This document shows positions 1 through 14,806 of a stretch of DNA of 14,806 bases, one piece after another. The position numbers and the translations under genes were made by a program. The notes below the pieces were generated by a model. It saw only the letters and a program-made list of their open reading frames with translations, was not told the DNA's origin and made no database searches. Source of the stretch: an uncultured archaeon (GTDB lineage: Archaea; Asgardarchaeota; Thorarchaeia; Thorarchaeales; Thorarchaeaceae); NCBI GenBank assembly GCA_964458565.1, contig CAYWJO010000065.1:1-14806 (forward strand). Reading direction: 5' to 3'. The stretch's first letter is position 1, and every line of letters starts with the position of its first letter.

Positions 1-1043
1 CTAACTCCCTCTTCTATGATTCCTGTATAGTTTATTCTCGTAGGTTCGCCATAAGCTCTTGACATAGAGTGAGCTATCGATGCTCCGATGCTAGCAACAG
101 TCTCATGAGCAAGTGTATAGTTATACATGGAATTATCCCATGTATCGGATGGGCTATGATATGCACTATCATATCCTGATCCACTCTCAAATGCGAAGAG
201 AACACCTTGATAGTCATATGTCAGAAATGAATAGTGATCTGATCTTGACCAAGCCGAGAATGAGTTAGACGCAAGAGGTAGTATCAAATCCCGTCCTAAA
301 TTTCTGCTCATCATTCTTGTTAGATCTGCCCAGTAGTGACTTGTTTCATATATTGTCCTGGGATCATTGTTATAGACCATCAATACCCTCTCGTCAGGTG
401 GTGAATATCCATTTTCAACAAGAAGCATATCGACATTGAAGTATTGAAGGATTTGAATTCCTGAGCTAGAAAACTGTGCCGCGACTTCATGACTTCCAAC
501 TAGTCCAATTTCTTCCGAGTTCCATGCACAGAAGTAAATATCCAGAGGCCATTCGTATTTCGATAAAACATATGCCAATTCTAATACTGTTGCAACTCCT
601 GTTCCATCATCATTAGCTCCCGGCGCTAAAGCTACACTATCATAATGTCCACCAATCATGATTACTGGCGAATTACCCCCGACCCATCCAGGAAGTCTGC
701 CAACCACTGATTTATGGTTTCCAATTAATTCAACTTCAATCTTTCCACTTGAAAGCTCACCTAATCGCTTTACCAACCAGTTTCTGGCATAGACGTTTGC
801 ATCACTGAATGTTGGTCCAGCAGATGTCCATCTAGAACCATTTTCCGTCAGTTTGATGATGAAGTTCTTATATCTATTTTGAGAAACTTTGTCATAGACC
901 TCCGATTCAAAATTCATACTGTAAACACGTATCATCGAATTCGAATCTGCATCGGGATCTGCGAGTGCTATTGCTTTGGGTGTAGGGTATAGTGGAACTA
1001 CCACTGACAGTATAAGGATAAGAGGAATCAAGCGCTTCAGCAT
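1..1043 (-). CDS. M28-family zinc metallopeptidase with N-terminal signal peptide (3' end runs off the window)
   Basis: Manual translation from ATG at 1043: MLKRLIPLILILSVVVPLYPTPKAIALAD... (signal-peptide-like). Contains the M28 motifs IGGHYDS, PGANDDGTG, WNSEEIGLVGS, FNVDM, RSDHYSF and YHSPSD. The frame stays open to base 1. Not in the ORF track because no stop codon lies in the window. Confidence 0.92.
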   Translation of the reverse strand, partial: MLKRLIPLILILSVVVPLYPTPKAIALADPDADSNSMIRVYSMNFESEVYDKVSQNRYKNFIIKLTENGSRWTSAGPTFSDANVYARNWLVKRLGELSSGKIEVELIGNHKSVVGRLPGWVGGNSPVIMIGGHYDSVALAPGANDDGTGVATVLELAYVLSKYEWPLDIYFCAWNSEEIGLVGSHEVAAQFSSSGIQILQYFNVDMLLVENGYSPPDERVLMVYNNDPRTIYETSHYWADLTRMMSRNLGRDLILPLASNSFSAWSRSDHYSFLTYDYQGVLFAFESGSGYDSAYHSPSDTWDNSMYNYTLAHETVASIGASIAHSMSRAYGEPTRINYTGIIEEGV

Positions 1044-1172
1044 ATCTTAGACAGGAAATTATTCTATCTTAATTGTTCCCAATCGCGTATTCTATTGCAA
1101 TGCAAACCCTTTTTGCTTAGACATTTAAAGAACTAAGACCCAATTAGTGAAAGTGTAGTGTGGAGGATTCAG

Positions 1173-2450
1173 ATGACACATTCAGAACTCCAATTTTCAT
1201 TGGAACTCAAAGACCCACTTCATGGGTACATTGGAATCACCTCAGTAGAACAAGAACTACTCAACCTTCGTCATGTTCAGAGACTCCGCAATATTCGATC
1301 ACCTGCAGGTACTCGACTGGTATATCCCGGTGCAGATTCATCTCTGATGGGTGCCATGCTCGGAACTGTGCATATGACTGGACTATTTGCTAGGTACCTC
1401 GAAGCTGATTTAGATGAGGTACAAAAAGCACGTTTAGGGGCATTCCTCCTTATAATTGCGAAAGGTCCTTGGACGAATGTAATGGATGAGTATTTAGGAA
1501 CTAGAGGTCACAATCGAGTGAAGCTTGCTGATACCATTATCAAATCCTCCAGAGTTGGTGAAGTACTAAAAGACAATGGCTTTTCGCTCTCTGAATTATC
1601 CGATATTGTGACAAAGGGTATTCTGGTAAAGGGAATACGAATCAATCTAATGACTACTCCCATCAATCCTGAGTTGATTGAGAATCTTGATCGTGATTCG
1701 TATTTCACGGGGGTGGATTATTCCCAACTAGAATATCATAGGTTATTTACTAGTACTAGAGTAGCAAAAAACAAAATTGCTCTGAAGCGAGATGCCCTTT
1801 ATACCCTAGAATCCTACCTTTCTGCTGGAGCTAATATGTTTGACGCTGTTTATTATCACAAAACATGTCGTGCTGCAGAGTTAATGTTGCTAAGAATTCT
1901 AGAACTCGCTGGAAGTCATATCATGACACATCCTGAGCAAAACATAGACAAATTCCTTGAATACGATGACTTGACATTCCACCACATTCTGAGATATTGC
2001 AAGGAAGAAGACAATGAATCAGTCAAAGAAGCAGGTAGACTCTATGATGATTTCTGTAAGAGGTATCTGTTAAAACGAGCAAGCAGCAGATCTATCTCTG
2101 ACAAGAGTTTTCTTGATAGAATCTCAACTCCTGATGGTCTCTTTGCAATTGAAACAGAAATTGCTGAAGATGCAGGTATTGATCCAAGTATGGTCTATGT
2201 TGATTATCCCGACCGAACCTCAGTCGCATTCTATCCTGGAAAACACGATTTAGAAGATCTTGTTCTCTATGAACGGGGTTCCAAAGGTTATGAATTCTGG
2301 CCAGTCACGGAAATGAGTTTAACTGCTCGAAGTTTTGGTCGGAACTTGAAAAGAGTTCGAGTCTATACTAGTAGGGGATATCGTGCACGCGTGAAGAAGA
2401 CAGCCGATAAATTACTTGAGAGTCTTGATACCCCTGGAATGGAGATATAA
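1173..2450 (+). CDS. SAMHD1/YwfO-like HD-superfamily (dNTP triphosphohydrolase-like) protein, catalytic motifs degenerate
   Basis: Family landmarks KDPLHGYI, QRLRNI, VYPGA, GPW, RDSYFTG, VYYHK and YDD are present. Start placed at ATG 1173 behind GGAGG (1162-1166) rather than GTG 1158. The HD dyad and first metal His are absent (see findings). Confidence 0.88.
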   Translation: MTHSELQFSLELKDPLHGYIGITSVEQELLNLRHVQRLRNIRSPAGTRLVYPGADSSLMGAMLGTVHMTGLFARYLEADLDEVQKARLGAFLLIIAKGPWTNVMDEYLGTRGHNRVKLADTIIKSSRVGEVLKDNGFSLSELSDIVTKGILVKGIRINLMTTPINPELIENLDRDSYFTGVDYSQLEYHRLFTSTRVAKNKIALKRDALYTLESYLSAGANMFDAVYYHKTCRAAELMLLRILELAGSHIMTHPEQNIDKFLEYDDLTFHHILRYCKEEDNESVKEAGRLYDDFCKRYLLKRASSRSISDKSFLDRISTPDGLFAIETEIAEDAGIDPSMVYVDYPDRTSVAFYPGKHDLEDLVLYERGSKGYEFWPVTEMSLTARSFGRNLKRVRVYTSRGYRARVKKTADKLLESLDTPGMEI

Positions 2451-2528
2451 TGGACATATCATCAATTGGCTTAAGAGGGGAAATTCCAAAAATATACTGT
2501 TGATAGTTCAATAATAGGAAGTTACATC

Positions 2529-4805
2529 GTGTTCTCCTGTAAAAGATGTGGATTGCCTCTCTACATAGAGAGTGCGGAACTTAAAGATCGAATCCTCAAG
2601 ATGGACGTCAGTTGCCTTCGCGGACATAAGAGTGTACGACGTTTGTCTGAACAGCAAGCAACTGAAATTGCTGAGGACCTCTTCCAAAAAATAACTGTTT
2701 GTCTGGATTGCGGGTCAACGATGACTCAGATAACATCTGATTTACAAGGCCCCCGTGTTGAGGCTGATTTTCTATGTCCCATTCACGGTGTTCAAGGACG
2801 TGAATATCCCTCTTCATTCCTACCAGCAGTAGGTCTTCTTGATACAGGAGACGACGTGAGAAGAGCCATCATTAACGCTTTCAAATGCGATCAATGTGGA
2901 CGGCTCTTTGCTGTGCGTGGTATAGACCTGATACCAGGTGGTCTTGAGCTCGAGGTTAGGTGTCCAAATGGTCACAGGAATACAAGATACGTCCCAAATG
3001 ATTTGGACTCTGATTTAATGACAAAGATATTCCAGCTGACAGCTAGTTGTGATAAATGTGGTTTACTTGGACACATTGGTAAACTTGAAGAAAGGAAGAG
3101 GAAATCAAAGATATTTGTTACATGTCCTATTCATGGGGACGAACGAAAGGATATTCCTAATGAAATTCTATCAAATGTAAAGAAAGCCATTGAAGAGATA
3201 TCTCCGGAAGCAGTCGTTGGAGCTATGTTGGTGACACGAGATTGTAACCATCCACTGGCAATTCGCAGTATTGAAGAAACGAAGACTGGTTTCAAATTCA
3301 AGTGCATCTGTCCCATAAAAGGACATTCAATGGATCGGGAAATCCCAATCATTTGGAATGAGGCTGTGAAAGAGAGAATCACGGCAGGTCTCCTTACATG
3401 CAGTGAATGTGGCCTTATGACACAAATCATTGATAGCAAGAAGAGTAAGAAAAGTATTGATTTCAAAATAACATGTCCAATCCATGGAGTGATGGAACGT
3501 TCAGTAACTCCTGATATCTTCAAGTATGTTATGGAAACTAAAAACTCAATTGATCAATTACCTTCGATTATTAAGAGTCTGAGTTGTGAAAAGTGCCGAC
3601 TACCTTCAATTATTCGAGATGTAGAACATCGACAAAATCTAACGGAACTCGAAGTCGACTGTAAAAACGGGCATAGAAGTAAGCGGTTCTTTGCTCCAGA
3701 CCTAGATGAAGTAACTCTTGTTGCCCTTTACAAGAATTTGTACCGTTGTCCTGAATGCTATGAAGATTTAGAATTAGTTTACATTGAACCTCAAGGACGT
3801 GAGTCTCGTGTTGTTCTTTTATGTAGTCTTCATGGTAAACATGTTGTTGATATTCCTCCAGAACATGCTGGAGCCTTACATAGGGCGTATGAAGAAATCC
3901 AGAAAGAGAAGATACATCCTCCTGTTGAGGCGGCTCCCGAACCTGAGCCACCAACCCTTGAGCCCACCACAGAGAGCGTTGAAGACATTGACGAAGCGGT
4001 AGTAGTACTTCGCGGCTGCGAAATCATTGGTGGAAAATTCGACTACAAATGCAAGGTGAAGAATGATAGTGGATATGTTATTACGAATGTAACTGTGAGT
4101 ATAGTTGCTTATCCGCAAGATTGCATGGAATTAGCTGGTGAATCTGTAAAGACGATCTCACGGATTGAAGTGGACGGATTTAGGTCTCCTCAATTCACAC
4201 TGTATCCAACAAAAGACTGTGTCCAAGGAAAGATAGTTGCTACTGTATCATTCATTGACTTTCGTGACCAGCTTCATACAATTCAAGTAGAACCTTATCT
4301 GATTCGGTCAGTATGCGACCTGCTAAAACCTCTCGAAGCCACTTCAAAAGAATTTGATCTCATTCTCACAAACCTAACAAAAACTCAGCAAGAACAGACA
4401 CTTGATTGGAATGCCAAAGTTCTCTTCACCAAAGCTGAGAAATTGTTGCCCTCTAAGAATTTTCATATTGTCGATACTGAGGAGAAGTCAATAGGTGGTC
4501 AGTTCATAGGGCTCATCCGAGGTTATGCTCAGGGAAAATATACGGGTAAGAAAGTCGCGGTAGTGTTTCTTATCTCAGGTCCAGAGAGTGGTCGACACTC
4601 ACAGGTTAAGGTCGAAGCTCTTGGCGAAGACATCGCAATGTTACCTACAACAATAGATGAACTAGCTGAAACAATGGACTCTTGGATTTGTCTTCGATGC
4701 GGTGCTCCACTTGATGAGGAACAAATAAGCGAACTTCATACACGCCTTCCTATAAGATGTCGATATTGTGCTCATTCACTCACAATCGCGCTCTACTTGC
4801 AATGA
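2529..4805 (+). CDS. Multi-metal-ribbon repeat protein (8 CxxC-x21-Cx2-3H modules) with C-terminal Ig-like + platform (adaptin/COP appendage-like) domain and terminal CxxC...CxxC Zn ribbon
   Basis: 758-aa ORF with a GTG start preceded by AGGAAG. Periodic Cys/His motifs over aa 4-435, Pro/Glu linker aa ~464-489, beta-rich domain aa ~490-719, CLRC...CRYC at aa 721-747. The CDS is well supported; the domain names are inference. Confidence 0.85.
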   Translation: MFSCKRCGLPLYIESAELKDRILKMDVSCLRGHKSVRRLSEQQATEIAEDLFQKITVCLDCGSTMTQITSDLQGPRVEADFLCPIHGVQGREYPSSFLPAVGLLDTGDDVRRAIINAFKCDQCGRLFAVRGIDLIPGGLELEVRCPNGHRNTRYVPNDLDSDLMTKIFQLTASCDKCGLLGHIGKLEERKRKSKIFVTCPIHGDERKDIPNEILSNVKKAIEEISPEAVVGAMLVTRDCNHPLAIRSIEETKTGFKFKCICPIKGHSMDREIPIIWNEAVKERITAGLLTCSECGLMTQIIDSKKSKKSIDFKITCPIHGVMERSVTPDIFKYVMETKNSIDQLPSIIKSLSCEKCRLPSIIRDVEHRQNLTELEVDCKNGHRSKRFFAPDLDEVTLVALYKNLYRCPECYEDLELVYIEPQGRESRVVLLCSLHGKHVVDIPPEHAGALHRAYEEIQKEKIHPPVEAAPEPEPPTLEPTTESVEDIDEAVVVLRGCEIIGGKFDYKCKVKNDSGYVITNVTVSIVAYPQDCMELAGESVKTISRIEVDGFRSPQFTLYPTKDCVQGKIVATVSFIDFRDQLHTIQVEPYLIRSVCDLLKPLEATSKEFDLILTNLTKTQQEQTLDWNAKVLFTKAEKLLPSKNFHIVDTEEKSIGGQFIGLIRGYAQGKYTGKKVAVVFLISGPESGRHSQVKVEALGEDIAMLPTTIDELAETMDSWICLRCGAPLDEEQISELHTRLPIRCRYCAHSLTIALYLQ
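2538..3908 (+). repeat. Protein-level tandem repeat: 4 copies of a ~116-aa A+B double metal-ribbon unit
   Basis: Module starts at aa 4, 58, 120, 174, 236, 291, 353 and 407 (spacings 54, 62, 54, 62, 55, 62, 54). A modules end CxxGH (CPIKGH in the third) and B modules end CPIHG/CSLHG. No obvious identity remains at the DNA level. Confidence 0.9.
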
Positions 4806-4810
4806 ATCTT

Positions 4811-5380
4811 TCAAATCTTATCTGACCATTCGATATCAGGTGTGTCTTTGGCTTTGATATGAATAAGGATCCTATCAATCACAGAATCAACCAATTCAGT
4901 TATTGACTTGGGTTTGTGCCAAAATGCTGGAGAAGCTGGAAACACGATTCCGCCTGCTTCTGTGACTATTGCCATGTTACGGATATGTATGAGATTCAAA
5001 GGAGATTCCCGTGGAACTAAAATTAGTTTTCTTCTCTCTTTTAGCGCGCAATCCGCAGCTCTTGTTATTAGATTGTCTGCATAGCCATGAGCGATACCTG
5101 CTAGTGTCTTCATTGTGCAGGGTGCGATAATTACTGCATCAAGATGATAGCTTCCACTTGCTGGTTGAGCTGACAAATCCTGCTCGTCATAAACACAATC
5201 AGCCTCTTTAGAAAGTACCTCCGAAGATATACCAAGTTCATATTCCAATGTCTTCTCTCCCCATCTGCTTATAATGATATGAACCTCATGTCCTAGGGTC
5301 TTTAGTGCGCGAATCAAATTGACTCCATAAATAGCACCACTGGCGCCTGTTATGCACACAAGTACTCTCTTCTTTGCCAT
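4811..5380 (-). CDS. ubiX: Flavin prenyltransferase UbiX/Pad1
   Basis: Motifs ITGASGAIYG, ASGS, IAPCTMKTLAGIAHG, NLITRAADCALKERRKLILVPRESP and PASPAFWHKP; 189 aa; GAGGAG upstream of the ATG. Confidence 0.96.
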   Translation of the reverse strand: MAKKRVLVCITGASGAIYGVNLIRALKTLGHEVHIIISRWGEKTLEYELGISSEVLSKEADCVYDEQDLSAQPASGSYHLDAVIIAPCTMKTLAGIAHGYADNLITRAADCALKERRKLILVPRESPLNLIHIRNMAIVTEAGGIVFPASPAFWHKPKSITELVDSVIDRILIHIKAKDTPDIEWSDKI

Positions 5381-5442
5381 CCTGATTGCTCCTCTAAATA
5401 CTCTTTATACTTCGTCTGATAACTTATTCGAAAGAACTATTG

Positions 5443-7284
5443 TCAAATGAAAAATGATAGAATCAAAGATATCAGGAACGCAGAACCAGCTGCAACAATC
5501 CCATTTCTTTTTGCAATTCCTGCTGCTTCAACAATGTCCTGAGTCAAGATATCGAATCCCCGTTCTCCAAAAGTACAGAGATCCTTAACTTCACTAAATC
5601 CGATTCCCATTTTCATCCGAGTCTTATTTTTCTCAGCAATTTCAACCGTTTTTTCTATTGAATCGATGATTTCATCTGGACAATATCGACCCACTGGTGG
5701 ATACCCTTTGCTGGATAATGATATTGCATTAACTAGATGGGTGTCCGTAGTGAAAATATCTGCACTGTCATATCCCATTGCCTTTACGGACTCAATCACT
5801 TTCTCTCTGAACCCTGGTTCAACATTGTTACCATCCACTACAGTGAAAACAGTCTTTCCGTCAGGTGTTTCGATGATTGTAGTAGTTATACCACCAGGTC
5901 CCAATCCTTGCTTCTGACTAATATTGTTGGGAACGAAGCTTCCTATACCCATCATGAATGAATGTTTTTGACAATCAATTGACTCTCGTACCGATTGTGT
6001 TAAGACGTCGGTGTATATCATTGCTTCAGGATCATCAGGCATAACAGATACCGCATCATCAGCAATGCAATTATGAGCATCTGCAATAGTAATTCGATCA
6101 ATCACATCATATTCATTAGTGATTTTTTTCTTTGTCCTCTCCCCAACTTCGAGGGCAATATCATCTGTAAACTCTGGTGCACTTGTTGAGATCAAAAGTG
6201 CATTTCTGTGTGAGTGAATTGCCCAGACTTTGAATTTTCCTCTATCAATCCACATTGGACCTGTAATGTCATCATGAACAGGTGTATTCGTAATCAATCT
6301 ATCAATCTCTGCCATCACTCTCGGATAATCCAGCTTGTCTGTGAGGTTCTGATGGTGAGTGCATGTTCCATGAAGCACAAATGACGGAATTTCATATTTC
6401 TCTTGGATGTGGTTCATTATTGCAAATGGAAGTCCACTACTACCAAGGTCTCTGAAAGGTCCTGGATGTATATAGAGAACAACTCCTACTGCTGCTAATC
6501 CATCATCATTCTTGAAAATCATCGCATCGATTGGTATATCCTGCTTTGACCCAATTTGCCGAATCAAGTGTTCAAAAGGTTCGGGATTTTCCATCAAATA
6601 GTCATATCCGAAAGCTCGCAAAAGTTCTGGACCATTGATTCCTAGATCTCTCTCAAATGGCACGCTTACAGCATTGAAGATGTAGTGTACTGCGATAGTG
6701 AATGCGATGATTGAACCCATTCCAATGAGAATCCATTGTTGTGGTAGAAATGGAATGAATGTATATTGAGGAAGTATGAACATTAGGCTATACCATAGAA
6801 GAGGAGGTATCATTGCAGCAAAAAATGTACGAATTGGATGATGATCGCTTAATCCTGTTAGTAGAAATGCAAAGAACACATAAGCTACACTGAGACCAAG
6901 CATTAACATTCTATTCTCAAAATGCTCTAGAACAAGAACGAAATCTAAGAGACCTCCAATTCCACCAAGAATGACCCAAAATAACACACCGAATTGGGAT
7001 GCTCCTGCTGTTCTTCGAGCATCCAAAGGTGAATCCTCTTTTCGTACTACTGCATACATTAGAAGAGTACCAAATAGCATACTAGCTGTATAGAGTAGTG
7101 CATAGGCGAGAAATGTGGGTGTGAATATATCGAAGGTGTTTTTCATAGATCTAAATAAGGAAAGTACTACTGACAAAACCGATACACTGATTATGAGATT
7201 GAAGATGATTCTGCGAAATGTAGGTAGCTGCCAAACTTTAGAATACAATTGAACAGTCTCTTTTACCTTGGCCTTCTCGCCCAT
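5443..7284 (-). CDS. DUF2070 (COG3356) archaeal membrane protein, predicted ceramidase-like lipid hydrolase
   Basis: About 6 N-terminal TM helices, then a soluble domain with HPGPF, HGTCTHH, DAHN, DGNN and TTDTH, and a C-terminal TM helix; 613 aa; GGTGG upstream of the ATG. Confidence 0.88.
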   Translation of the reverse strand: MGEKAKVKETVQLYSKVWQLPTFRRIIFNLIISVSVLSVVLSLFRSMKNTFDIFTPTFLAYALLYTASMLFGTLLMYAVVRKEDSPLDARRTAGASQFGVLFWVILGGIGGLLDFVLVLEHFENRMLMLGLSVAYVFFAFLLTGLSDHHPIRTFFAAMIPPLLWYSLMFILPQYTFIPFLPQQWILIGMGSIIAFTIAVHYIFNAVSVPFERDLGINGPELLRAFGYDYLMENPEPFEHLIRQIGSKQDIPIDAMIFKNDDGLAAVGVVLYIHPGPFRDLGSSGLPFAIMNHIQEKYEIPSFVLHGTCTHHQNLTDKLDYPRVMAEIDRLITNTPVHDDITGPMWIDRGKFKVWAIHSHRNALLISTSAPEFTDDIALEVGERTKKKITNEYDVIDRITIADAHNCIADDAVSVMPDDPEAMIYTDVLTQSVRESIDCQKHSFMMGIGSFVPNNISQKQGLGPGGITTTIIETPDGKTVFTVVDGNNVEPGFREKVIESVKAMGYDSADIFTTDTHLVNAISLSSKGYPPVGRYCPDEIIDSIEKTVEIAEKNKTRMKMGIGFSEVKDLCTFGERGFDILTQDIVEAAGIAKRNGIVAAGSAFLISLILSFFI

Positions 7285-7383
7285 TTAGTCCACCAGTAGA
7301 TTTGTTCCTCTCATGCTTATTCTTCTTATCAAAGTTCCTTTTGGTGTTTGATTTCCCACCAAACAAAGGTACAAATCAGCAAG

Positions 7384-7427
7384 TTTATATCGCATTCGAT
7401 ATCGCATTCGATAATCATATTCGATAT
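7384..7427 (+). promoter_or_regulatory. TATA box (TTTATAT) overlapped by tandem palindromic operator sites ATATCG-N4-CGATAT, probable PadR autoregulatory site
   Basis: ATATCGCATTCG occurs twice in tandem (7387-7398, 7399-7410) plus a degenerate third copy. This gives a perfect inverted repeat at 7387-7402 and overlapping imperfect ones, ~50 bp upstream of the padR start. Confidence 0.7.
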
Positions 7428-7477
7428 TGGTGAGTAAAACGACGCCGCAAAAACAAAATGAAGACTGCGAGGAACCA

Positions 7478-7972
7478 ATGCCGCATTCAATGCCACGTGG
7501 ATTTCTACGTATTCTAATCATGAGTCTTCTAAAATCTGACGAGCTAACTGGTTCTGAGATGATGGAGATACTAGAGGACAGAAGCGACGGTCGGTGGAAA
7601 CCAAGCCCTGGTTCGATTTACCCAATGCTTGATTCGCTGAAGGAAGATGGATTCATAGAAGTTGCAAGTGAGATTGGCAGAAGCAAGAAGTACAAAATAA
7701 CTCCAGCTGGTTCTGACCACTTCCGGAATATCTCTAGGAGGAAGAGGGATATGGAGCATAAAACCCGGTTGAGCAGAGTCTTGTGGTTGCATCTATTGAA
7801 TCCCTCAGATCGTGTTCATTTTCATCTAAGTGGTATTCTAGCTGCAGTGGAATTTCTTGAGGAATCCATTGAAGAATTATCCTCTTCTGAGAAGAAAAAA
7901 GTTAGTCCTCGTATCGAGCCTATTATCGAGAAACTCTCCTTATTGAAAAAAAACATCGAGAACGGAGAATAG
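7478..7972 (+). CDS. PadR-family transcriptional regulator
   Basis: RGFLRILIMSLL...TGSEMMEILEDRSDGRWKPSPGSIYPMLDSLKEDGFI...KYKITPAG is the PadR wHTH signature. Start placed at ATG 7478 behind GAGGA rather than at 7427. Confidence 0.93.
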   Translation: MPHSMPRGFLRILIMSLLKSDELTGSEMMEILEDRSDGRWKPSPGSIYPMLDSLKEDGFIEVASEIGRSKKYKITPAGSDHFRNISRRKRDMEHKTRLSRVLWLHLLNPSDRVHFHLSGILAAVEFLEESIEELSSSEKKKVSPRIEPIIEKLSLLKKNIENGE

Positions 7973-7976
7973 AACA

Positions 7977-9800
7977 ATGACAAACAATGACAATCAACAT
8001 AAAAGAACTCCAACCAGATACATGCTTGAAGGTCTCTTCAAACACCCAAGTGCAATTATTTTCGCAACAATCCTGACAATTATCTCTTCTCTATTGACTA
8101 CACTACCAAGTGTGTATTTGAAATATACCTTTGATGAATTAGAGGCTTCAAATGCAATAACTGCAACATTTATGGCATATATCTGGGCTATTGTTGCCTT
8201 TACTTTGATATACATGGTACTATATTTTGGAGTTGGGTACGTTTGGGCAGTAGTGACGCTAGGATGGGAACGAGATGCTCGGCAAGAATTTTTTGAAATT
8301 CTTCAGGAGAATAGCATGACTTTTCATGATGAGGTTGATAGTAAGAAACTTCTCTCTGTCGCAATGCAGGATATCAATTGGATTAGGATGTCGGTAAACC
8401 CAGGACTTCGAAACATTCTTGGTGGAATTGCATCTTTTGGAATCGTGGGTTTCTTTTTAGCTTTAAATGATTATCAACCTGGAATGGGTCCTGTTCCTAT
8501 ATTCACTCTTCTTATGGTGGTAGGCGCACCAATTTACCTATGGTTTGCTTATCGGTATGCTAGTGCTATTGAACCTGTAAGAAGATCCCGTTCAGAAACG
8601 ATAGAGAATCTTACTTCTATCTCACAAGGTGTATTTTCAGGTATTGAGGTTGTGAGGGCATTTGGAGCTGAGGATAGAGAATCTGAAAAATTCAGAAAAA
8701 CGTCTAAGGAATATTCGGATATTGTTACAAAAGAAGGTAGATTGTCTGCATTTTATCTTCCTGCACTTGTTCTAATTGCTATGACAACTATCGCATTCAT
8801 CTATGGCGCGGTAAATGTAATCGGTAATACGATGACCACTGGCTCTCTTATTCAAATTGTAACATTGCTCGTGTCATTAACATTTCTAAACTTCCAATTC
8901 CCATTTATGCTGCTGATGCTCAGAGGTGGTTGGGTCAACGCAAAACGGGTCGTAGATATACTCAACTGGGATGAGCCAATGATTGAACCCGAGCAGTCAT
9001 GTGAAGTTGAATGGGGTAGTGACATAGTCTTTGATAATGTGAGTTTCGCATATAATTCAAACAATGAGCATAATAATCATTATGCCCTTAAGGATTTCAA
9101 TATCACAATCCCTGGTGGCTCAAGAGTGGCACTCATAGGAGGTCCTGGAGGTGGAAAATCAACCATTCTTAAGTTGCTTCTACGTTTGTATGATCCTACA
9201 AACGGTAGTCTACGAATCGGCGGAGTTGATCTTCGACAAGTCAGTACCAACGATGTCCGAGCTGCAATGGGCTTAGTTGAACAAGATATTTTCCTATTTA
9301 GAATGACCGTCAGAGAGAATATTTCTTTCGGACGACCTGATGCTACAGATGAAGAGATAATAGAGGCGGCTAAGCGTGCACAAGCAGACGAATTTATTCA
9401 AGAATTACCCAATGGTTATGATTCCATGATTGGAGAAAGGGGTATGACTCTGAGTGGTGGTCAGAGACAGAGATTAGCAATCGCTAGAGCATTAGTTCAA
9501 GATCCCAAAATTCTTTTACTCGATGATTCAGTCAGTGCAGTTGACGCGCAAACTGAGTTTCTCCTGAGAAAAGCGCTGGGTGCAGCACTGGTCAATAGGA
9601 CGAGTATAACAGTCACACAACGGCTCAGAACACTGATTGAATCAGATATGGTAATTATTGTTGACAAGGGACAATTGATGGCTGCAGGTTGTCACGAAGA
9701 CCTACTTCAAACATCTGACCACTATAGACGCATCTTTGAACGATTGCCTGGAGCAAGCACAATTCTCAAAGTAGCTCCAATCAAAGGAGGTTTGAAATAA
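7977..9800 (+). CDS. ABC exporter half-transporter (TMD+NBD), degenerate-site subunit (TM287/LmrC-like)
   Basis: Roughly 6 TM helices, Walker A GGPGGGKST, signature LSGGQRQR, Walker B LLLDDS (Asp in place of the catalytic Glu), switch His replaced by Gln (VTQRL). Confidence 0.95.
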   Translation: MTNNDNQHKRTPTRYMLEGLFKHPSAIIFATILTIISSLLTTLPSVYLKYTFDELEASNAITATFMAYIWAIVAFTLIYMVLYFGVGYVWAVVTLGWERDARQEFFEILQENSMTFHDEVDSKKLLSVAMQDINWIRMSVNPGLRNILGGIASFGIVGFFLALNDYQPGMGPVPIFTLLMVVGAPIYLWFAYRYASAIEPVRRSRSETIENLTSISQGVFSGIEVVRAFGAEDRESEKFRKTSKEYSDIVTKEGRLSAFYLPALVLIAMTTIAFIYGAVNVIGNTMTTGSLIQIVTLLVSLTFLNFQFPFMLLMLRGGWVNAKRVVDILNWDEPMIEPEQSCEVEWGSDIVFDNVSFAYNSNNEHNNHYALKDFNITIPGGSRVALIGGPGGGKSTILKLLLRLYDPTNGSLRIGGVDLRQVSTNDVRAAMGLVEQDIFLFRMTVRENISFGRPDATDEEIIEAAKRAQADEFIQELPNGYDSMIGERGMTLSGGQRQRLAIARALVQDPKILLLDDSVSAVDAQTEFLLRKALGAALVNRTSITVTQRLRTLIESDMVIIVDKGQLMAAGCHEDLLQTSDHYRRIFERLPGASTILKVAPIKGGLK

Positions 9801-11863
9801 TGGGAATGCGTGGACATGGTGGTCCAAGAGCATTGGCTCTTCAGCGAGAGAAGAGAAGTCGCCCTATGCGAGTTCTCCTTGGCAGAATGGTACATTATCT
9901 TGGTGGTTTTAGAAAAATTGTCGCGATCGGTGCTGTCTTTTCACTCATTGCCAGCATTCTTGGTGTTATCATCCCCGTTATATTGACAGATGGTATTGAT
10001 GTAATCGCAGCTAATAATCCCATTCTCGCAGACGTACTCTATCTTATCACCCTGTATGTAGCTTTGAGTTTAGCCTATTGGATTATAGGGAGTCTAAAAA
10101 CATGGGTATTGTCATCCGCACAGGCTGGATTTGTGCAAATAATCCAATCTGATACTTACGATCATCTTGTTAATGCAGATTTAATGTTCCATAAGTCGCA
10201 GCAGAGCGGAAATATCACATCACGTGTAACAACAGATGCTGTTTCATTATCTACAGGCATTCAAGTTATTATTGATTTCTTTAGTCAAATCCTTCTATTA
10301 GGAACCACTTTCTACATATTATGGATAACCGCACCTGAAATTGCTATAACTGCACTCGTTGTGGTTCCTGGAGTAATCTTCATTGCAGTTCTCTTTGGTA
10401 CTGTGGGTCAACGTATCATGCTGGCATCCCAGAGGGCATATGGTGCCGTGTCTGGCCAGATTGCTGAGAATCTGAGTGGTGTACATGTTGCTAAAGCATT
10501 CAATAGAGAGGATGAGTTAGCGGAAGAGATGTGTGAGCTTAATGCTAAAGCTTACAGACATGGATTTAGATTCATGATACTGATGAGCGCGATGCAACCA
10601 ATGGTCCGGTCATTTGGACAAATTGGAACTGTAGCAATATTGTTTGTAGGAGCTTCCCTTGCGGTTCAGACCGTTCCATTACTGACCATTGGAGGTGTCG
10701 TTTTGGGAGTTCTTTTAGTGAACCAGTTCATGTTTCCGCTGTTAGGTCTATCAATGATGGCATCACAGGTGCAAGCTTCTTTAGCTGCAATGGATAGGAT
10801 ATCTGATGTATTGGAATCCAAACCCGCAATTGCTGATTCACCTGAATCCACAGATTTGCTTGAAGAGAGTGATGGAATTACTTTTGATAATGTGACGTTC
10901 TCGTATGTGAAGGATACACCTGTTCTCAAAGCAATCAGTTTTAAGATACTACCAGGCGAACTTATAGCGATTGTAGGTCATACTGGTGCGGGAAAGACAA
11001 CAATTGCTTCTCTCATAAACAGATTCTATGATCCCGATTCAGGAGCTATACGGATTGGGAATCAAGATATCAGAGATGTCACTCTCAAGTCACTACATGA
11101 TTCTATTTCATTGATTCCACAGGAACCATACCTATTCGATGGTACAATATTTGAAAACATCCGATATGGGAAGCCTGATGCAGATAATGAAGAGATTATC
11201 AAACTCTGCAAGATGATTGGTGCTGATGAGTTCATTGAAGCACTCGCTGATGGGTACAATTCGCTGATTCTTGAGAGTGGAAAGAATCTATCTGCTGGGC
11301 AAAAACAGATGATAACGATAGCTCGTACAATGCTGGCAGATCCCAAAATTCTAATCCTCGATGAAGCTACTAGTAGATTAGATGCTTACAGTGAATCCCT
11401 TGTTCAAGACGCTCAAGCAAAACTGTTTACTGATAGGACAACTATAGTAATTGCACATAGACTCACTACGATTGCAAATGCTTCACGGATCATAATGTTT
11501 GAGAACGGAGAAATCATCGAAGAAGGTACACATAAGGAACTTCTAGCGAAGGAGGGCAAGTTCAAAGCACTTTATGATACGTATTATGCTCATCAAGGTG
11601 TGGAGGAATTGACTGAAGATATTGCAGAAGTCGCCAAAGAAGAAGTTTCTAAGGCTGGTGAATCTCCAATTCCAGCTCAAGGTCCTGGTATGGGATTTGG
11701 TATGGGTGGAATGGGTATGGGTGGCATGCCTTCAGGTATGAGTCCACCAAGCCCTGAGCAATTGAAAAAGATGATTAAACATATGCCGCCTGAAATGGTC
11801 GAACAGATTAAAGAACGACATCCTGAGATGTTTGCATCCGATGATGCAGATACTGGGGAATGA
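9800..11863 (+). CDS. ABC exporter half-transporter (TMD+NBD), consensus-site subunit (TM288/LmrD-like) with Gly/Met/Pro-rich C-terminal tail
   Basis: Walker A GHTGAGKTT, degenerate signature LSAGQKQ, Walker B ILILDEATS, switch IAHRL. Coupled to the upstream gene by a TAATG stop/start overlap at 9798-9802. Confidence 0.95.
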   Translation: MGMRGHGGPRALALQREKRSRPMRVLLGRMVHYLGGFRKIVAIGAVFSLIASILGVIIPVILTDGIDVIAANNPILADVLYLITLYVALSLAYWIIGSLKTWVLSSAQAGFVQIIQSDTYDHLVNADLMFHKSQQSGNITSRVTTDAVSLSTGIQVIIDFFSQILLLGTTFYILWITAPEIAITALVVVPGVIFIAVLFGTVGQRIMLASQRAYGAVSGQIAENLSGVHVAKAFNREDELAEEMCELNAKAYRHGFRFMILMSAMQPMVRSFGQIGTVAILFVGASLAVQTVPLLTIGGVVLGVLLVNQFMFPLLGLSMMASQVQASLAAMDRISDVLESKPAIADSPESTDLLEESDGITFDNVTFSYVKDTPVLKAISFKILPGELIAIVGHTGAGKTTIASLINRFYDPDSGAIRIGNQDIRDVTLKSLHDSISLIPQEPYLFDGTIFENIRYGKPDADNEEIIKLCKMIGADEFIEALADGYNSLILESGKNLSAGQKQMITIARTMLADPKILILDEATSRLDAYSESLVQDAQAKLFTDRTTIVIAHRLTTIANASRIIMFENGEIIEEGTHKELLAKEGKFKALYDTYYAHQGVEELTEDIAEVAKEEVSKAGESPIPAQGPGMGFGMGGMGMGGMPSGMSPPSPEQLKKMIKHMPPEMVEQIKERHPEMFASDDADTGE

Positions 11864-11913
11864 GATTTGACCCATTTAGAAACCAGATTGAAACGAGATA
11901 TGGGATGTTAATG

Positions 11914-12717
11914 TTACACTTCTTGAACATCAATTGTGAGTTCTTGGGAGCAAATTAGAAAACCACCGATTAAGATGTAGCCTTCAATAGCCAGAATTCC
12001 AACAATGACGAGGATGATCATTGTTGATGCATACCATACTAATAGACTACTCAGGTACATTGCCATTAATCCCAAAAACAAGTAGCGAATGATCCCTCCA
12101 ATATGCCCCTCACGGAGTGCATAGTACTGAGTATAAATAGAAGCTGTAATTAATCCCATGATAACCGAGAAGAACAAATACCATGTCGATTCATATGGAC
12201 CATATTCGACATTTGCACCAAGTATACTTGGAAATGCAAGTATTAATGCTAGGGCTCCGAAGACTAGTGCAATTGCCCAAAGACGTGGAAACGCAAAACC
12301 CAGCACATTATTTGAGGCTCTCACATAACCTGCGACTCCAAGTATCCATAGAATGAGTGCAGTTGCTCTAGCACTTGATACCATGTATGGAAGAACTTGG
12401 TTTTCTGGTTGACTCAATGCGATGGCATTAGCAATATCCGCTAATGCTAGAACAAGAATACCTGCCGATAGGAGCACTCCTAGCATATGGAATGTATCAT
12501 CATGAAATAAGCCAGAGGAGCTATATTTGAGGAGACCAAAAAATCCGACTCCAAAGCCAAGCATCGCTGAGACCACCGCCATTGTGATTCCAATTGAATT
12601 AGCGGGTAGACCAGTAAACGGCAATAAAAGAAGTGAAAGAGCAGCAATCCCTATTGTAGCAAATGGTAGTATTCCTACACATTTTTTTCGAATGTGAGGC
12701 TTTGCTGCTTCTGTCAT
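11914..12717 (-). CDS. Uncharacterised integral membrane protein (~8 TM helices), resembling stand-alone membrane sensor modules
   Basis: 267 aa, eight hydrophobic segments with short loops and no soluble domain; 51 bp downstream of the longin gene on the same strand. Confidence 0.8.
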   Translation of the reverse strand: MTEAAKPHIRKKCVGILPFATIGIAALSLLLLPFTGLPANSIGITMAVVSAMLGFGVGFFGLLKYSSSGLFHDDTFHMLGVLLSAGILVLALADIANAIALSQPENQVLPYMVSSARATALILWILGVAGYVRASNNVLGFAFPRLWAIALVFGALALILAFPSILGANVEYGPYESTWYLFFSVIMGLITASIYTQYYALREGHIGGIIRYLFLGLMAMYLSSLLVWYASTMIILVIVGILAIEGYILIGGFLICSQELTIDVQEV

Positions 12718-12768
12718 GTAATCGTACCTTCAGTAGTTTGAACTTAGTATTGTGTGTTTTGCTTCTCA

Positions 12769-13962
12769 TTAAACGAAGAAACGTTCCCATTCAACTTCAA
12801 ATGCACGATTTGGGAAACGTGTTTCAACTTCATGTCGCGTTTGTGTGATAATCCTTTTCACGGGTGCCTTTCCTGTAAATTGATTTGCAGTCACACATAC
12901 CTCTTCCAATAATGCTCTTAATGCCTCTCGCAGTAATTGGGGTGATATTGCGCCTCTAGATACGCCCGCGATAAGTGATGGTCGCACCTCGATATCGACA
13001 TGCTCTTCTAACTCCACATACCCTAACCATGTGTATTGATTCACCAACTTGTTGCGTGCCTGAAGAAAGACCTGACGGGAGAGACGATATCCCAGTAGTT
13101 TGGAAAGCCTCTGTAAAAGACCTTGAAGGGTTGAGGCGTACAGGACTACTAATGCCTGTCCTGGTGAAACTTGCTCCACTTCTCTCCTTCTAGCAAGTGA
13201 TGCTATCTCTTGGAGAAACTGCCGTATATCAGATGTCTTGACTCTCTCTGCAGCTATGGAGAGTGGGGTTTCACCATCTAGCTGAGAGATAGCTCTTTTT
13301 ATCTCCTCTGAAACAGTCTGAGATGAATCACCGTTTTCTACAAATGTTGTTGGTTGATAGATATCATCTGGTCGAGGTAGCGTGGTTACTGTGACTGCTC
13401 TGTCCCAGAGCGCATCGACTGTGAGATTCATTGTAACCTCTACGGGAAGCTCGAGGAAATTACCTACATCTTCAACACTGCATTCTTCAGGTAATAGACT
13501 GAGAAACGCAGTGACATCTGGATTTCGAGTATAATATTCCCAATCTCTCTTTACATGAATTGTCGTGTGAGGATAGACCTGATCTCTGATGAACTCTTCA
13601 ATCATGACACGTTCAAAACGAGAATATACTGCAAGATCCATTTCAACCCAGCGAAGGAGATGAAACTGCTCCTCGAACCTGGCGATTACGCGAGATAGTT
13701 TATCTCTTAGAGCTGCTGTGTCATTTGAAGCAGCCATAGCTCCCATCGTCCACTCTCCGTTCTCAACGAGTAAGGTGTATCCTGTTCCTTCAAATGCTCT
13801 TGCTTTCGAATCTCGTGAGAGTGTTGCTTCATCAAAAAATGACGCCATCGCTACAATGAAGGATGAGAGTAAATGTGGGTCGAAAATCGATTCACCAAAG
13901 TCGTGATGGTACATACAAACCCCTGAGTCTCTTTTTATGATGTATAGGCTCTTCACGTCCAT
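12769..13962 (-). CDS. Longin-domain protein with two winged-helix-like repeats and a helical C-terminal domain
   Basis: aa 1-125 match the Asgard/eukaryotic longin pattern (SLYIIKRDSGVCMYHHDF...DPHLLSSFIVAMASFFDE...LSRVIARFEEQF...FERVMIEEF). aa ~148-193 and ~218-265 are wH-like (ISQLDGETPLSIAAE). GAGGT lies upstream of the ATG. Confidence 0.82.
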   Translation of the reverse strand: MDVKSLYIIKRDSGVCMYHHDFGESIFDPHLLSSFIVAMASFFDEATLSRDSKARAFEGTGYTLLVENGEWTMGAMAASNDTAALRDKLSRVIARFEEQFHLLRWVEMDLAVYSRFERVMIEEFIRDQVYPHTTIHVKRDWEYYTRNPDVTAFLSLLPEECSVEDVGNFLELPVEVTMNLTVDALWDRAVTVTTLPRPDDIYQPTTFVENGDSSQTVSEEIKRAISQLDGETPLSIAAERVKTSDIRQFLQEIASLARRREVEQVSPGQALVVLYASTLQGLLQRLSKLLGYRLSRQVFLQARNKLVNQYTWLGYVELEEHVDIEVRPSLIAGVSRGAISPQLLREALRALLEEVCVTANQFTGKAPVKRIITQTRHEVETRFPNRAFEVEWERFFV

Positions 13963-14096
13963 GGGTTTGTACCTCGGTGGAATATGCGGCTTCCCAAATA
14001 ATGATGAACTTAATCTCTTTTGAGGCTTCTAGTGAACCTCTACAGACTAATGCTATTGCATTATGACTATAAGTAATGAATCTTGTTTGTTGGGAT

Positions 14097-14708
14097 ATGA
14101 GCCGAGATAAAGAACTTGCAGTGAAATGTCCTTCATGTGGGACTGGAAATCTCAAAATCACTTCCATGATGTATAGCGTTCCTTTCTTCAATGAACTCGC
14201 GATGTTTACAATGGAATGTCCTGACTGCAACTTCCACCACAATGATGTTTTCTCTGCAGAACAACGAACTCCAAGTCGCTGGACACTACTAGTGAGTGAT
14301 CCTCAGTTACTTAGAGTAAGGGTTGTTCGTTCAGGATCAGGAACTATACGATTTCCTGAGTTTGGAATTGATGTGGAGCCAGGACCTGCAGCTGAGTCTT
14401 TCATCAGCAATGTAGAAGGGGTTCTTTACCGAACTAGGTCCGTTGTGGAAAGTGCTGTGAATTTCGCAGATACAGAAGAGCAACGCACTCAAGGTTTGAA
14501 AGTTTTGGATATGATGGAAAAGGCAATCAAAGGTGAACTCACCTTCACCCTTATCATTGAAGACCCAGCAGGTGTTAGTGGAATTTTACCTGATGATTTA
14601 CGTTTAGTAAAGCACGAAACACTCACTCTCGAGGAGGCTTCAGAGCTGAAAGGTGCTCCGATGTTCGTTGATTCGATTCGTGAAGAGTTCAGAGAGCACA
14701 AGGGTTAA
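14097..14708 (+). CDS. Archaeal ZPR1-related zinc-finger protein (COG1779)
   Basis: CPSCG...YSVPFFNE...CPDCNF, RVVRSGSGTIRFPEFGIDVEPGP, FISNVEGVL and FTLIIEDPAGVSGI are ZPR1 motifs. Start more likely ATG 14097 than 14076. Confidence 0.94.
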   Translation: MSRDKELAVKCPSCGTGNLKITSMMYSVPFFNELAMFTMECPDCNFHHNDVFSAEQRTPSRWTLLVSDPQLLRVRVVRSGSGTIRFPEFGIDVEPGPAAESFISNVEGVLYRTRSVVESAVNFADTEEQRTQGLKVLDMMEKAIKGELTFTLIIEDPAGVSGILPDDLRLVKHETLTLEEASELKGAPMFVDSIREEFREHKG

Positions 14709-14752
14709 AAACTGCGACGAAGGATGAGGGATTCGCCCCTGTGGCAATACAT

Positions 14753-14806
14753 GGGCCGGTAGATTAGCCCGGCAGATCGCATGGTTTGCATCCATGAGGC
14801 CGCGAG
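14753..14806 (+). tRNA. tRNA-Ala(UGC), 3' end truncated by the window
   Basis: GGGCCGG acceptor strand (G3 Ala identity base), TA, D-stem GATT/GATC, anticodon stem CATGG/CCATG with loop TT-TGC-AT, variable loop AGGCC, T-stem 5' strand GCGAG. No intron in the visible part. Confidence 0.9.

Follow-up and report, generated by a model that had tools for sequence, protein, structure and literature searches.

A zinc-ribbon rod bearing a predicted adaptin/COPI-type ear in a Thorarchaeial archaeon

In eukaryotic vesicle coats, appendage domains, or ears, serve as the interaction hubs, and where these domains came from bears on how endomembrane trafficking arose. The locus analyzed here raises the question of whether an archaeal gene encodes such an ear and, if so, what the ear might do. 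It lies on contig CAYWJO010000065.1 of an uncultured Thorarchaeaceae archaeon (assembly GCA_964458565.1), of which positions 1 to 14,806 were studied (the window). An initial annotation of this DNA had flagged positions 3996-4769, corresponding to amino acids (aa) 490-747 within a single forward-strand open reading frame (ORF), 2529-4805, as a putative adaptin/coatomer ear on a flexible hinge. The ORF product joins eight zinc ribbons to a predicted ear, and this rod-ear layout is what is new here; a coat or adaptor role for the protein is a candidate reading that we consider very improbable. Our preferred reading, to which we assign a probability of roughly 0.55, is that the ear docks to a partner and that the soluble rod protein is a scaffold presenting the docking ear.

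The gene and the parts of its product are laid out as follows.

2529..4805, forward strand: whole gene, 758 aa, GTG start, stop codon included; encodes rod, hinge, ear and zinc ribbon
2529..3914, forward strand: zinc-ribbon rod, aa 1-462, eight tandem modules of ~55 aa each, CxxC...Cx2-3H
3915..3998, forward strand: acidic Pro/Glu hinge, aa 463-490 (28 aa), with 7 P, 7 E, 2 D and no K or R
3999..4316, forward strand: immunoglobulin (Ig)-like beta-sandwich of the ear, aa 491-596, nine predicted strands, predicted local distance difference test (pLDDT) mostly >90
4317..4682, forward strand: platform (alpha/beta) of the ear, aa 597-718
4683..4802, forward strand: C-terminal C4 zinc ribbon, aa 719-758, with C721, C724, C744 and C747; packs on the ear in the model

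Judging by its sequence, we take the ORF to be a genuine gene and not a chance frame, because its product has 194 homologues at E ≤ 1e-3 (length-limited search), because 402 clusters at 50% identity carry matches to the ear-plus-ribbon family (exhaustive phmmer search, E ≤ 1e-3), and because no ORF longer than 80 aa competes with it, the sole one on the opposite strand of the region being 80 aa. The start is supported by the N-terminal MFSCKKC shared by the orthologues; promoter and terminator scans gave chance-level results only. All segments described in the initial annotation (hinge, all-beta segment, junction, alpha/beta segment and C4 ribbon) were found in the forward frame of this ORF: the hinge string PPVEAAPEPEPPTLEPTTESVEDIDE occupies aa 464-489, and the peptides YKCKVKN, SFIDFRD, CDLLKPLE and LIRGYAQ were located at aa 506, 574, 596 and 662.

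The rod modules are Cys3His zinc ribbons in which a C-x-x-G-H type alternates with a C-P-I-H-G type, and in module 5 the first CxxC is replaced by C-x-H. The eight-module array was predicted with a predicted template modelling score (pTM) of 0.78, and no solenoid match was retrieved for it. The four cysteines of the C-terminal ribbon are invariant across 81 family members and the ribbon is modeled with a pLDDT of 92-95; its Pfam and PDB matches are weak and to zinc ribbons only. Nine zinc sites are predicted in the whole protein, which has no transmembrane segment or signal peptide and is accordingly predicted to be soluble and cytoplasmic.

The ear was modeled over aa 488-758 with AlphaFold2 (AF2), using an alignment (A1) of 81 diverse members that are 34-61% identical to the query. 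The mean pLDDT was 93.4, and the five models spanned 92.2-93.4. The predicted elements are nine strands (aa 491-594), a short junction (596-601) and a helix (606-613), followed over aa 617-716 by a strand, a long helix, a four-stranded sheet and a terminal helix, after which comes the zinc ribbon. The best Foldseek matches of the model were the AP2 alpha ear (E 1e-9) and beta-COP (TM-scores 0.62/0.68). In a structural comparison, the following values were obtained (figure as listed, aligned residues, root-mean-square deviation (rmsd)).

beta-COP 9qpq_H: 17.7, 223, 3.3 (best match)
alpha ear: 16.2, 210, 4.2
beta2 ear: 14.6, 205, 3.9
gamma-COP: 13.2, 212, 6.6
AP-4 beta (platform only, model residues 110-231): 13.1, 112, 2.4
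BBS9: 12.2, 189, 3.7

A Foldseek-independent exhaustive search against 48,161 representative chains left the ranking unchanged. All matches with at least 189 aligned residues in that search were appendages or BBSome GAE-platform modules, and its remaining high rows were confined to residues 1-108. In the ESM Atlas, the ear model matched Coatomer beta (TM-score 0.64), AP-3 delta and alpha-adaptin appendage clusters. The sandwich aligns with the sandwiches of the alpha, beta2, beta-COP and gamma-COP ears, and the platform follows it directly in the orientation seen in appendages (rmsd 3.3 over 223 residues against beta-COP). The resemblance thus extends beyond a generic Ig-like match, both subdomains matching appendages in order by AF2, Foldseek and the 48,161-chain search. 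On this model, aa 488-758 very probably form the two-lobed adaptin/COPI appendage fold, an Ig-like sandwich followed by a platform, as had been proposed.

The initial annotation had also stated that the Trp typical of the eukaryotic platform helix was not evident; here the alignment calls for a correction in so far as a conserved Trp, a possible counterpart, is present: W627 in the motif DWNAK, just before the platform helix, is kept in at least 80% of the family. Together with the invariant N644-F645, W627 flanks this helix, these being sequence positions and not a residue-level superposition with the FxxxW pocket. Separately, C564 (4218-4220) in the sandwich and C596 (4314-4316) at the junction are 98% conserved family-wide, H583 (4275-4277) is 75% conserved and C497 41%. 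A fifth metal site of Cys3His type in the sandwich (C497/C564/H583/C596) was considered and rejected, as the residues do not co-occur strictly and give no strict four-ligand pattern.

Sequence-level searches gave a different picture from the structural ones. Pfam and NCBIfam searches with the 758-aa protein returned nothing in the ear and no appendage family at E ≤ 0.1. When the 81 modules were scanned against Pfam at E ≤ 5, no appendage appeared among the commonest families, which were zinc-ribbon ones; sub-threshold matches to GAE_BBS1 and TRAPPC13_C were seen. PDB sequence and profile searches retrieved no appendage. The curated appendage models considered were PF02883, PF02296, PF09066, PF07718 and PF14806; in the whole genome, PF02883 (Alpha_adaptinC2), PF07718 (Coatamer_beta_C) and PF09066 (B2-adapt-app_C) had no match at E ≤ 10. 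Since no sequence model matches, the relation to the eukaryotic appendage families is drawn entirely from the predicted fold.

This silence would fit an independent origin of the fold, in which an Ig sandwich and a TBP-like/helix-grip domain, both common folds, came together with an unrelated role such as small-molecule or metal binding, in which C564 and C596 might take part; the conservation of these cysteines and of H583 is in keeping with it. However, the matches of at least 189 aligned residues are without exception to appendages or BBSome GAE-platforms, the relative orientation of the lobes is kept, and the family includes trafficking-type partners (EAP30, BBS2/ITFG2-like propellers and HEAT repeats, described below). 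Convergence with an unrelated role is therefore unlikely in our estimate.

To analyze the protein contexts of the ear, domain architectures were surveyed for the 141 complete modules found among the best 150 of the 402 clusters. The carrier proteins of the 402 clusters are 264-2867 aa long, with the module mostly at the C-terminus. Transmembrane segments precede 96 of the 141 complete modules (~70%), which makes these the cytoplasmic tails of membrane proteins. Three membrane layouts occur: signal peptide-ectodomain-transmembrane segment-ear, a single transmembrane segment followed by the ear, and several transmembrane helices followed by the ear. Typically, the last transmembrane helix is followed by an RRRK-type Arg/Lys stop-transfer cluster, a P/E/T-rich linker of 20-60 aa and the ear, an order that places the ear in the cytoplasm. 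The ectodomains of these carriers include Beta_helix/NosD, SBBP, PKD, Big, TSP3, PQQ/WD40 propellers, LanC-like domains and glycosidases.

Soluble carriers contain HEAT, TPR, LRR or WD40 repeats, or BBS2_Mid/ITFG2-like propellers in the BBSome order. In P0262, P0247 and P0251, a BBS2_Mid/ITFG2/BBS7-like propeller is followed by the ear and zinc ribbon, P0251 also having a TIR domain; PDB sequence support for the propeller of such relatives is weak (ITFG2, E 0.04). P0226 and P0234, both from Thorarchaeota, join E3_UFM1_ligase/PCI to the ear-ribbon, and P0223, whose cluster contains a Njordarchaeum member, has an EAP30 (ESCRT-II-like) domain after the ear; all three are phmmer matches of the window's ear with E-values of 1e-45 to 1e-48. 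An apparently helical tail of 130-155 aa, for which no Pfam match was found, takes the place of the zinc ribbon in at least 20 clusters (e.g., P0161, P0176, P0198, P0231, P0242 and P0245).

An unrooted FastTree phylogeny of the ear alone placed the zinc-rod ears in one clade (support 98) nested among the membrane-tail ears. At least 10 switches between membrane and soluble carriers are forced by well-supported branches, and parsimony counts 22 against a shuffled mean of 41.6; no direction of switching is claimed because the root is unplaced. Taken with the modeled fold, these data indicate that the ear-plus-ribbon is a mobile module, abundant and strongly conserved in one Asgard lineage.

The position of most ears only 20-60 residues from a transmembrane helix also fits direct membrane binding. 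Here, a basic face (R495, K507 and K509 of the sandwich, K670 and K674 of the platform hairpin) would bind anionic archaeal lipids and hold the tails or the rod against the inner side of the membrane, and the Y-K-V-K-V-x-N strand, with its alternating and nearly invariant Lys, could contribute to such a face. Yet the ear carries no net positive charge (26 K+R vs 29 D+E), eukaryotic ears bind peptides and not lipids, and a domain tethered by a transmembrane helix has little need of a lipid contact. We regard this role as quite unlikely.

At E ≤ 1e-10, an ear match was detected in 142 of 301 Asgard genomes. It was present in 70 of 76 other genomes of the window's own genome family, in 57 of 68 genomes of family f9 (mostly weaker matches), in all five of f16 (5/5) and in six of seven of f24 (6/7); the large families f5, f12, f14, f22 and f27 yielded no match in the genomes searched. 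Many genomes of the window's family contain tandem arrays of membrane-anchored ears, and one subfamily has two complete ear-plus-ribbon units in tandem. The double-ear relatives (P0002-P0021, P0157) have an N-terminal motif of approximately LW-x-LDDERAFE-x2-AAWLR-x-RRRK before the first ear, and their genes adjoin FeoAB and LarA. The window's own assembly, which is 93% complete, contains two ear genes and elsewhere only partial matches at the level of the zinc ribbon; no membrane-tail ear copy was found in it.

Such doubled and arrayed ears could point to a lattice in which ears bind each other or the linkers, and soluble multi-module members cross-link membrane tails into a primitive sub-membrane coat or sorting patch. 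The very high conservation of the ear over unrelated carriers would fit a shared interaction of this kind, but no conserved linker motif was found for an ear to recognize, and the window's genome has just its two ear genes, neither of them a membrane-tail copy. Bridging of this sort is an option we hold at rather low odds.

The second ear protein of the same genome, P0305 (394 aa, L002:1471-2655, reverse strand; G000 contig C2 near 203.3 kb), has a HEAT-like N-terminus (HEAT_2, E 0.047) and lacks the zinc ribbon. Thorarchaeota proteins of 407 aa, 80% of which contain HEAT_2, form an ESM Atlas cluster that matches the ear model with a TM-score of 0.81. The solenoid-plus-ear layout of P0305 is closer to adaptin than the zinc rod is.

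Of the 80 genomes of the window's family that were sampled, 63 contain the zinc rod itself; ~47 have the 758-aa type and ~35 a paralogue of 615-634 aa. In the paralogue, the same eight-module rod is combined with a zinc ribbon and a C-terminus of reduced length (weak DUF3568/platform-like match, E 0.1). Its gene often adjoins the 758-aa one (e.g., G251:C85:3251-4609 and G215:C25:6523-7884; proteins P0276-P0304), and a search of the window's own assembly did not find it there. Conservation along the 758-aa protein was measured as mean identity to the window's protein in an alignment of 78 full-length orthologues. The sandwich is the most conserved part (86%), followed by the platform (75%), the zinc ribbon (69%), the rod (50%) and the hinge (31%), which is almost constant in length and conserves its PPVEA start. 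With the identity of the ear so far above that of rod and hinge, the sequence comparison marks the ear as the constrained business end, the hinge apparently acting as a spacer and the rod evolving faster.

The gene neighborhood of the window contains the following genes.

3-1043, reverse strand: M28 peptidase, looks ordinary
1158-2450, forward strand: HD_assoc_2 protein, 430 aa, 78 nt upstream of the rod-ear gene and on the same strand
4811-5380, reverse strand: UbiX-type flavin prenyltransferase, looks ordinary
5443-7284, reverse strand: DUF2070 membrane protein, looks ordinary
7427-11863, forward strand: PadR regulator and two ABC exporter genes, look ordinary

Orthologous loci down to 43% rod identity preserve the order (HD_assoc_2 gene and rod-ear gene, then UbiX and DUF2070 in the opposite orientation, then PadR and the two ABC exporters), but the most distant one does not. 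The HD_assoc_2 and rod-ear genes have no evident functional link. The window's gene has no ESCRT neighborhood, and its protein no fused ESCRT domain. At five loci, no mu, sigma or second large subunit adjoins the gene, an observation on linkage that says nothing on assembly.

These data bear on whether the protein is a true adaptor analogue, i.e., the large subunit of a coat-adaptor complex in archaea with the zinc rod in place of the alpha-solenoid trunk, a replacement that the initial annotation had suggested. The trunk-hinge-ear layout it described is borne out by the zinc rod, the fixed-length hinge and the ear, and beta-COP is the best structural match. Against this, no mu, sigma or second large subunit is neighboring or co-conserved, the rod has no solenoid-like counterpart, and several genera of the same family yielded no rod gene. 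Moreover, the ear is used chiefly as a tail of membrane proteins, which argues against an adaptin-like coat subunit. While the layout holds, the adaptor function attached to it is thus very doubtful.

We instead favor the docking reading. Eukaryotic ears are hubs for short linear motifs (PMC10936438), and by analogy the archaeal ear would serve in protein-protein docking, with a single conserved cytosolic partner or a small number of them, and would bring its varied carriers to a common cytosolic partner in the way that eukaryotic ears engage short motifs. On this view, the window's protein would act as a soluble scaffold holding its ear on a flexible 28-residue hinge at the end of a rigid eight-ribbon rod, and a second binding function, evolving faster, is probable for the rod. 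For a docking/scaffold function as such, which is argued from analogy, we see about even odds. Several points weigh against the docking reading. The ear structure is a prediction; it has no sequence link to eukaryotic appendages, and its fold may be convergent. Neither the hinges nor the linkers between transmembrane segment and ear yielded a conserved short motif; they show P/E/T-rich low complexity only. The neighbors (HD_assoc_2, UbiX, DUF2070, PadR and the ABC exporters) are unrelated to trafficking, and no partner of the ear is known.

A more speculative extension, which we consider a long shot, is a pre-adaptor stage in which the membrane proteins of Thorarchaeia have adaptor-type ears built into their cytoplasmic tails and soluble multi-module members, among them the zinc-ribbon rod and the double-ear proteins, bridge these tails to sorting or remodeling machinery. 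If this were true, the ear would have belonged to the cargo, and not the coat, in the evolution of vesicle coats.

Together, our results present the predicted ear fold as a mobile module, found mostly as the inner tail of surface or membrane proteins and, in one copy per genome, on a soluble rod of zinc ribbons. The confidently modeled aa 488-758 (~270 residues) provide a testable reagent for finding the first archaeal ear ligand. Because ear-like domains in Asgard archaea have already been published, the gain is incremental unless a partner is found.

Fusions with the C-terminal domains of adaptin/COPI subunits, including a UFM1-ligase plus PCI type, have been reported in Asgard archaea (Liu et al. 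2021, bioRxiv 10.1101/2020.10.19.343400), and all AP domain types occur there, not fused to one another (Eme et al. 2023, PMC10307638). Adaptin appendage regions have further been described for Asgard proteins linked to ESCRT and for 'Meth_adaptin' loci of the Methanosarcinales type, where some Meth_adaptin proteins have a zinc ribbon or a transmembrane linker (Makarova et al. 2024, PMC10936438). In the literature texts open to search, we found no description of an eight-module rod plus ear, nor of the ear-plus-ribbon as a general membrane-protein tail. The zinc rod-hinge-ear layout is thus undescribed, while ear-like domains in Asgard archaea are not.

Compared with known systems, the window's ear is closest in predicted structure to the COPI beta-COP and gamma-COP and AP-2 alpha and beta2 ears (PDB 9qpq_H, 5nzr_B, 1r4x, 1b9k/1w80 and 1e42), with 6-14% identity and no Pfam match. 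It differs from them in having a further element, a C4 zinc ribbon that packs behind the platform, in the zinc-ribbon rod that stands where adaptin/COPI large subunits have an Adaptin_N solenoid trunk, and in the lack of mu/sigma partners in its gene context. The GAE and platform domains of BBSome BBS2/7/9 (PDB 6vbu chain 9) match less well than the COPI/AP ears and are preceded by a propeller, which the window's protein lacks. Unlike classical zinc ribbons such as the N-terminal ribbon of NrdR (PDB 9fzf/7p37), the rod has Cys3His ligands and an added helix per module, and its defined array of eight modules, as predicted, is without a solved structural counterpart. The window's gene differs from those of the published Asgard ESCRT-linked ear proteins, having no ESCRT neighborhood; with the published Asgard appendage-like proteins it shares an ear fold, non-eukaryotic domain combinations, and sequence relatives fused to E3_UFM1_ligase/PCI and EAP30.

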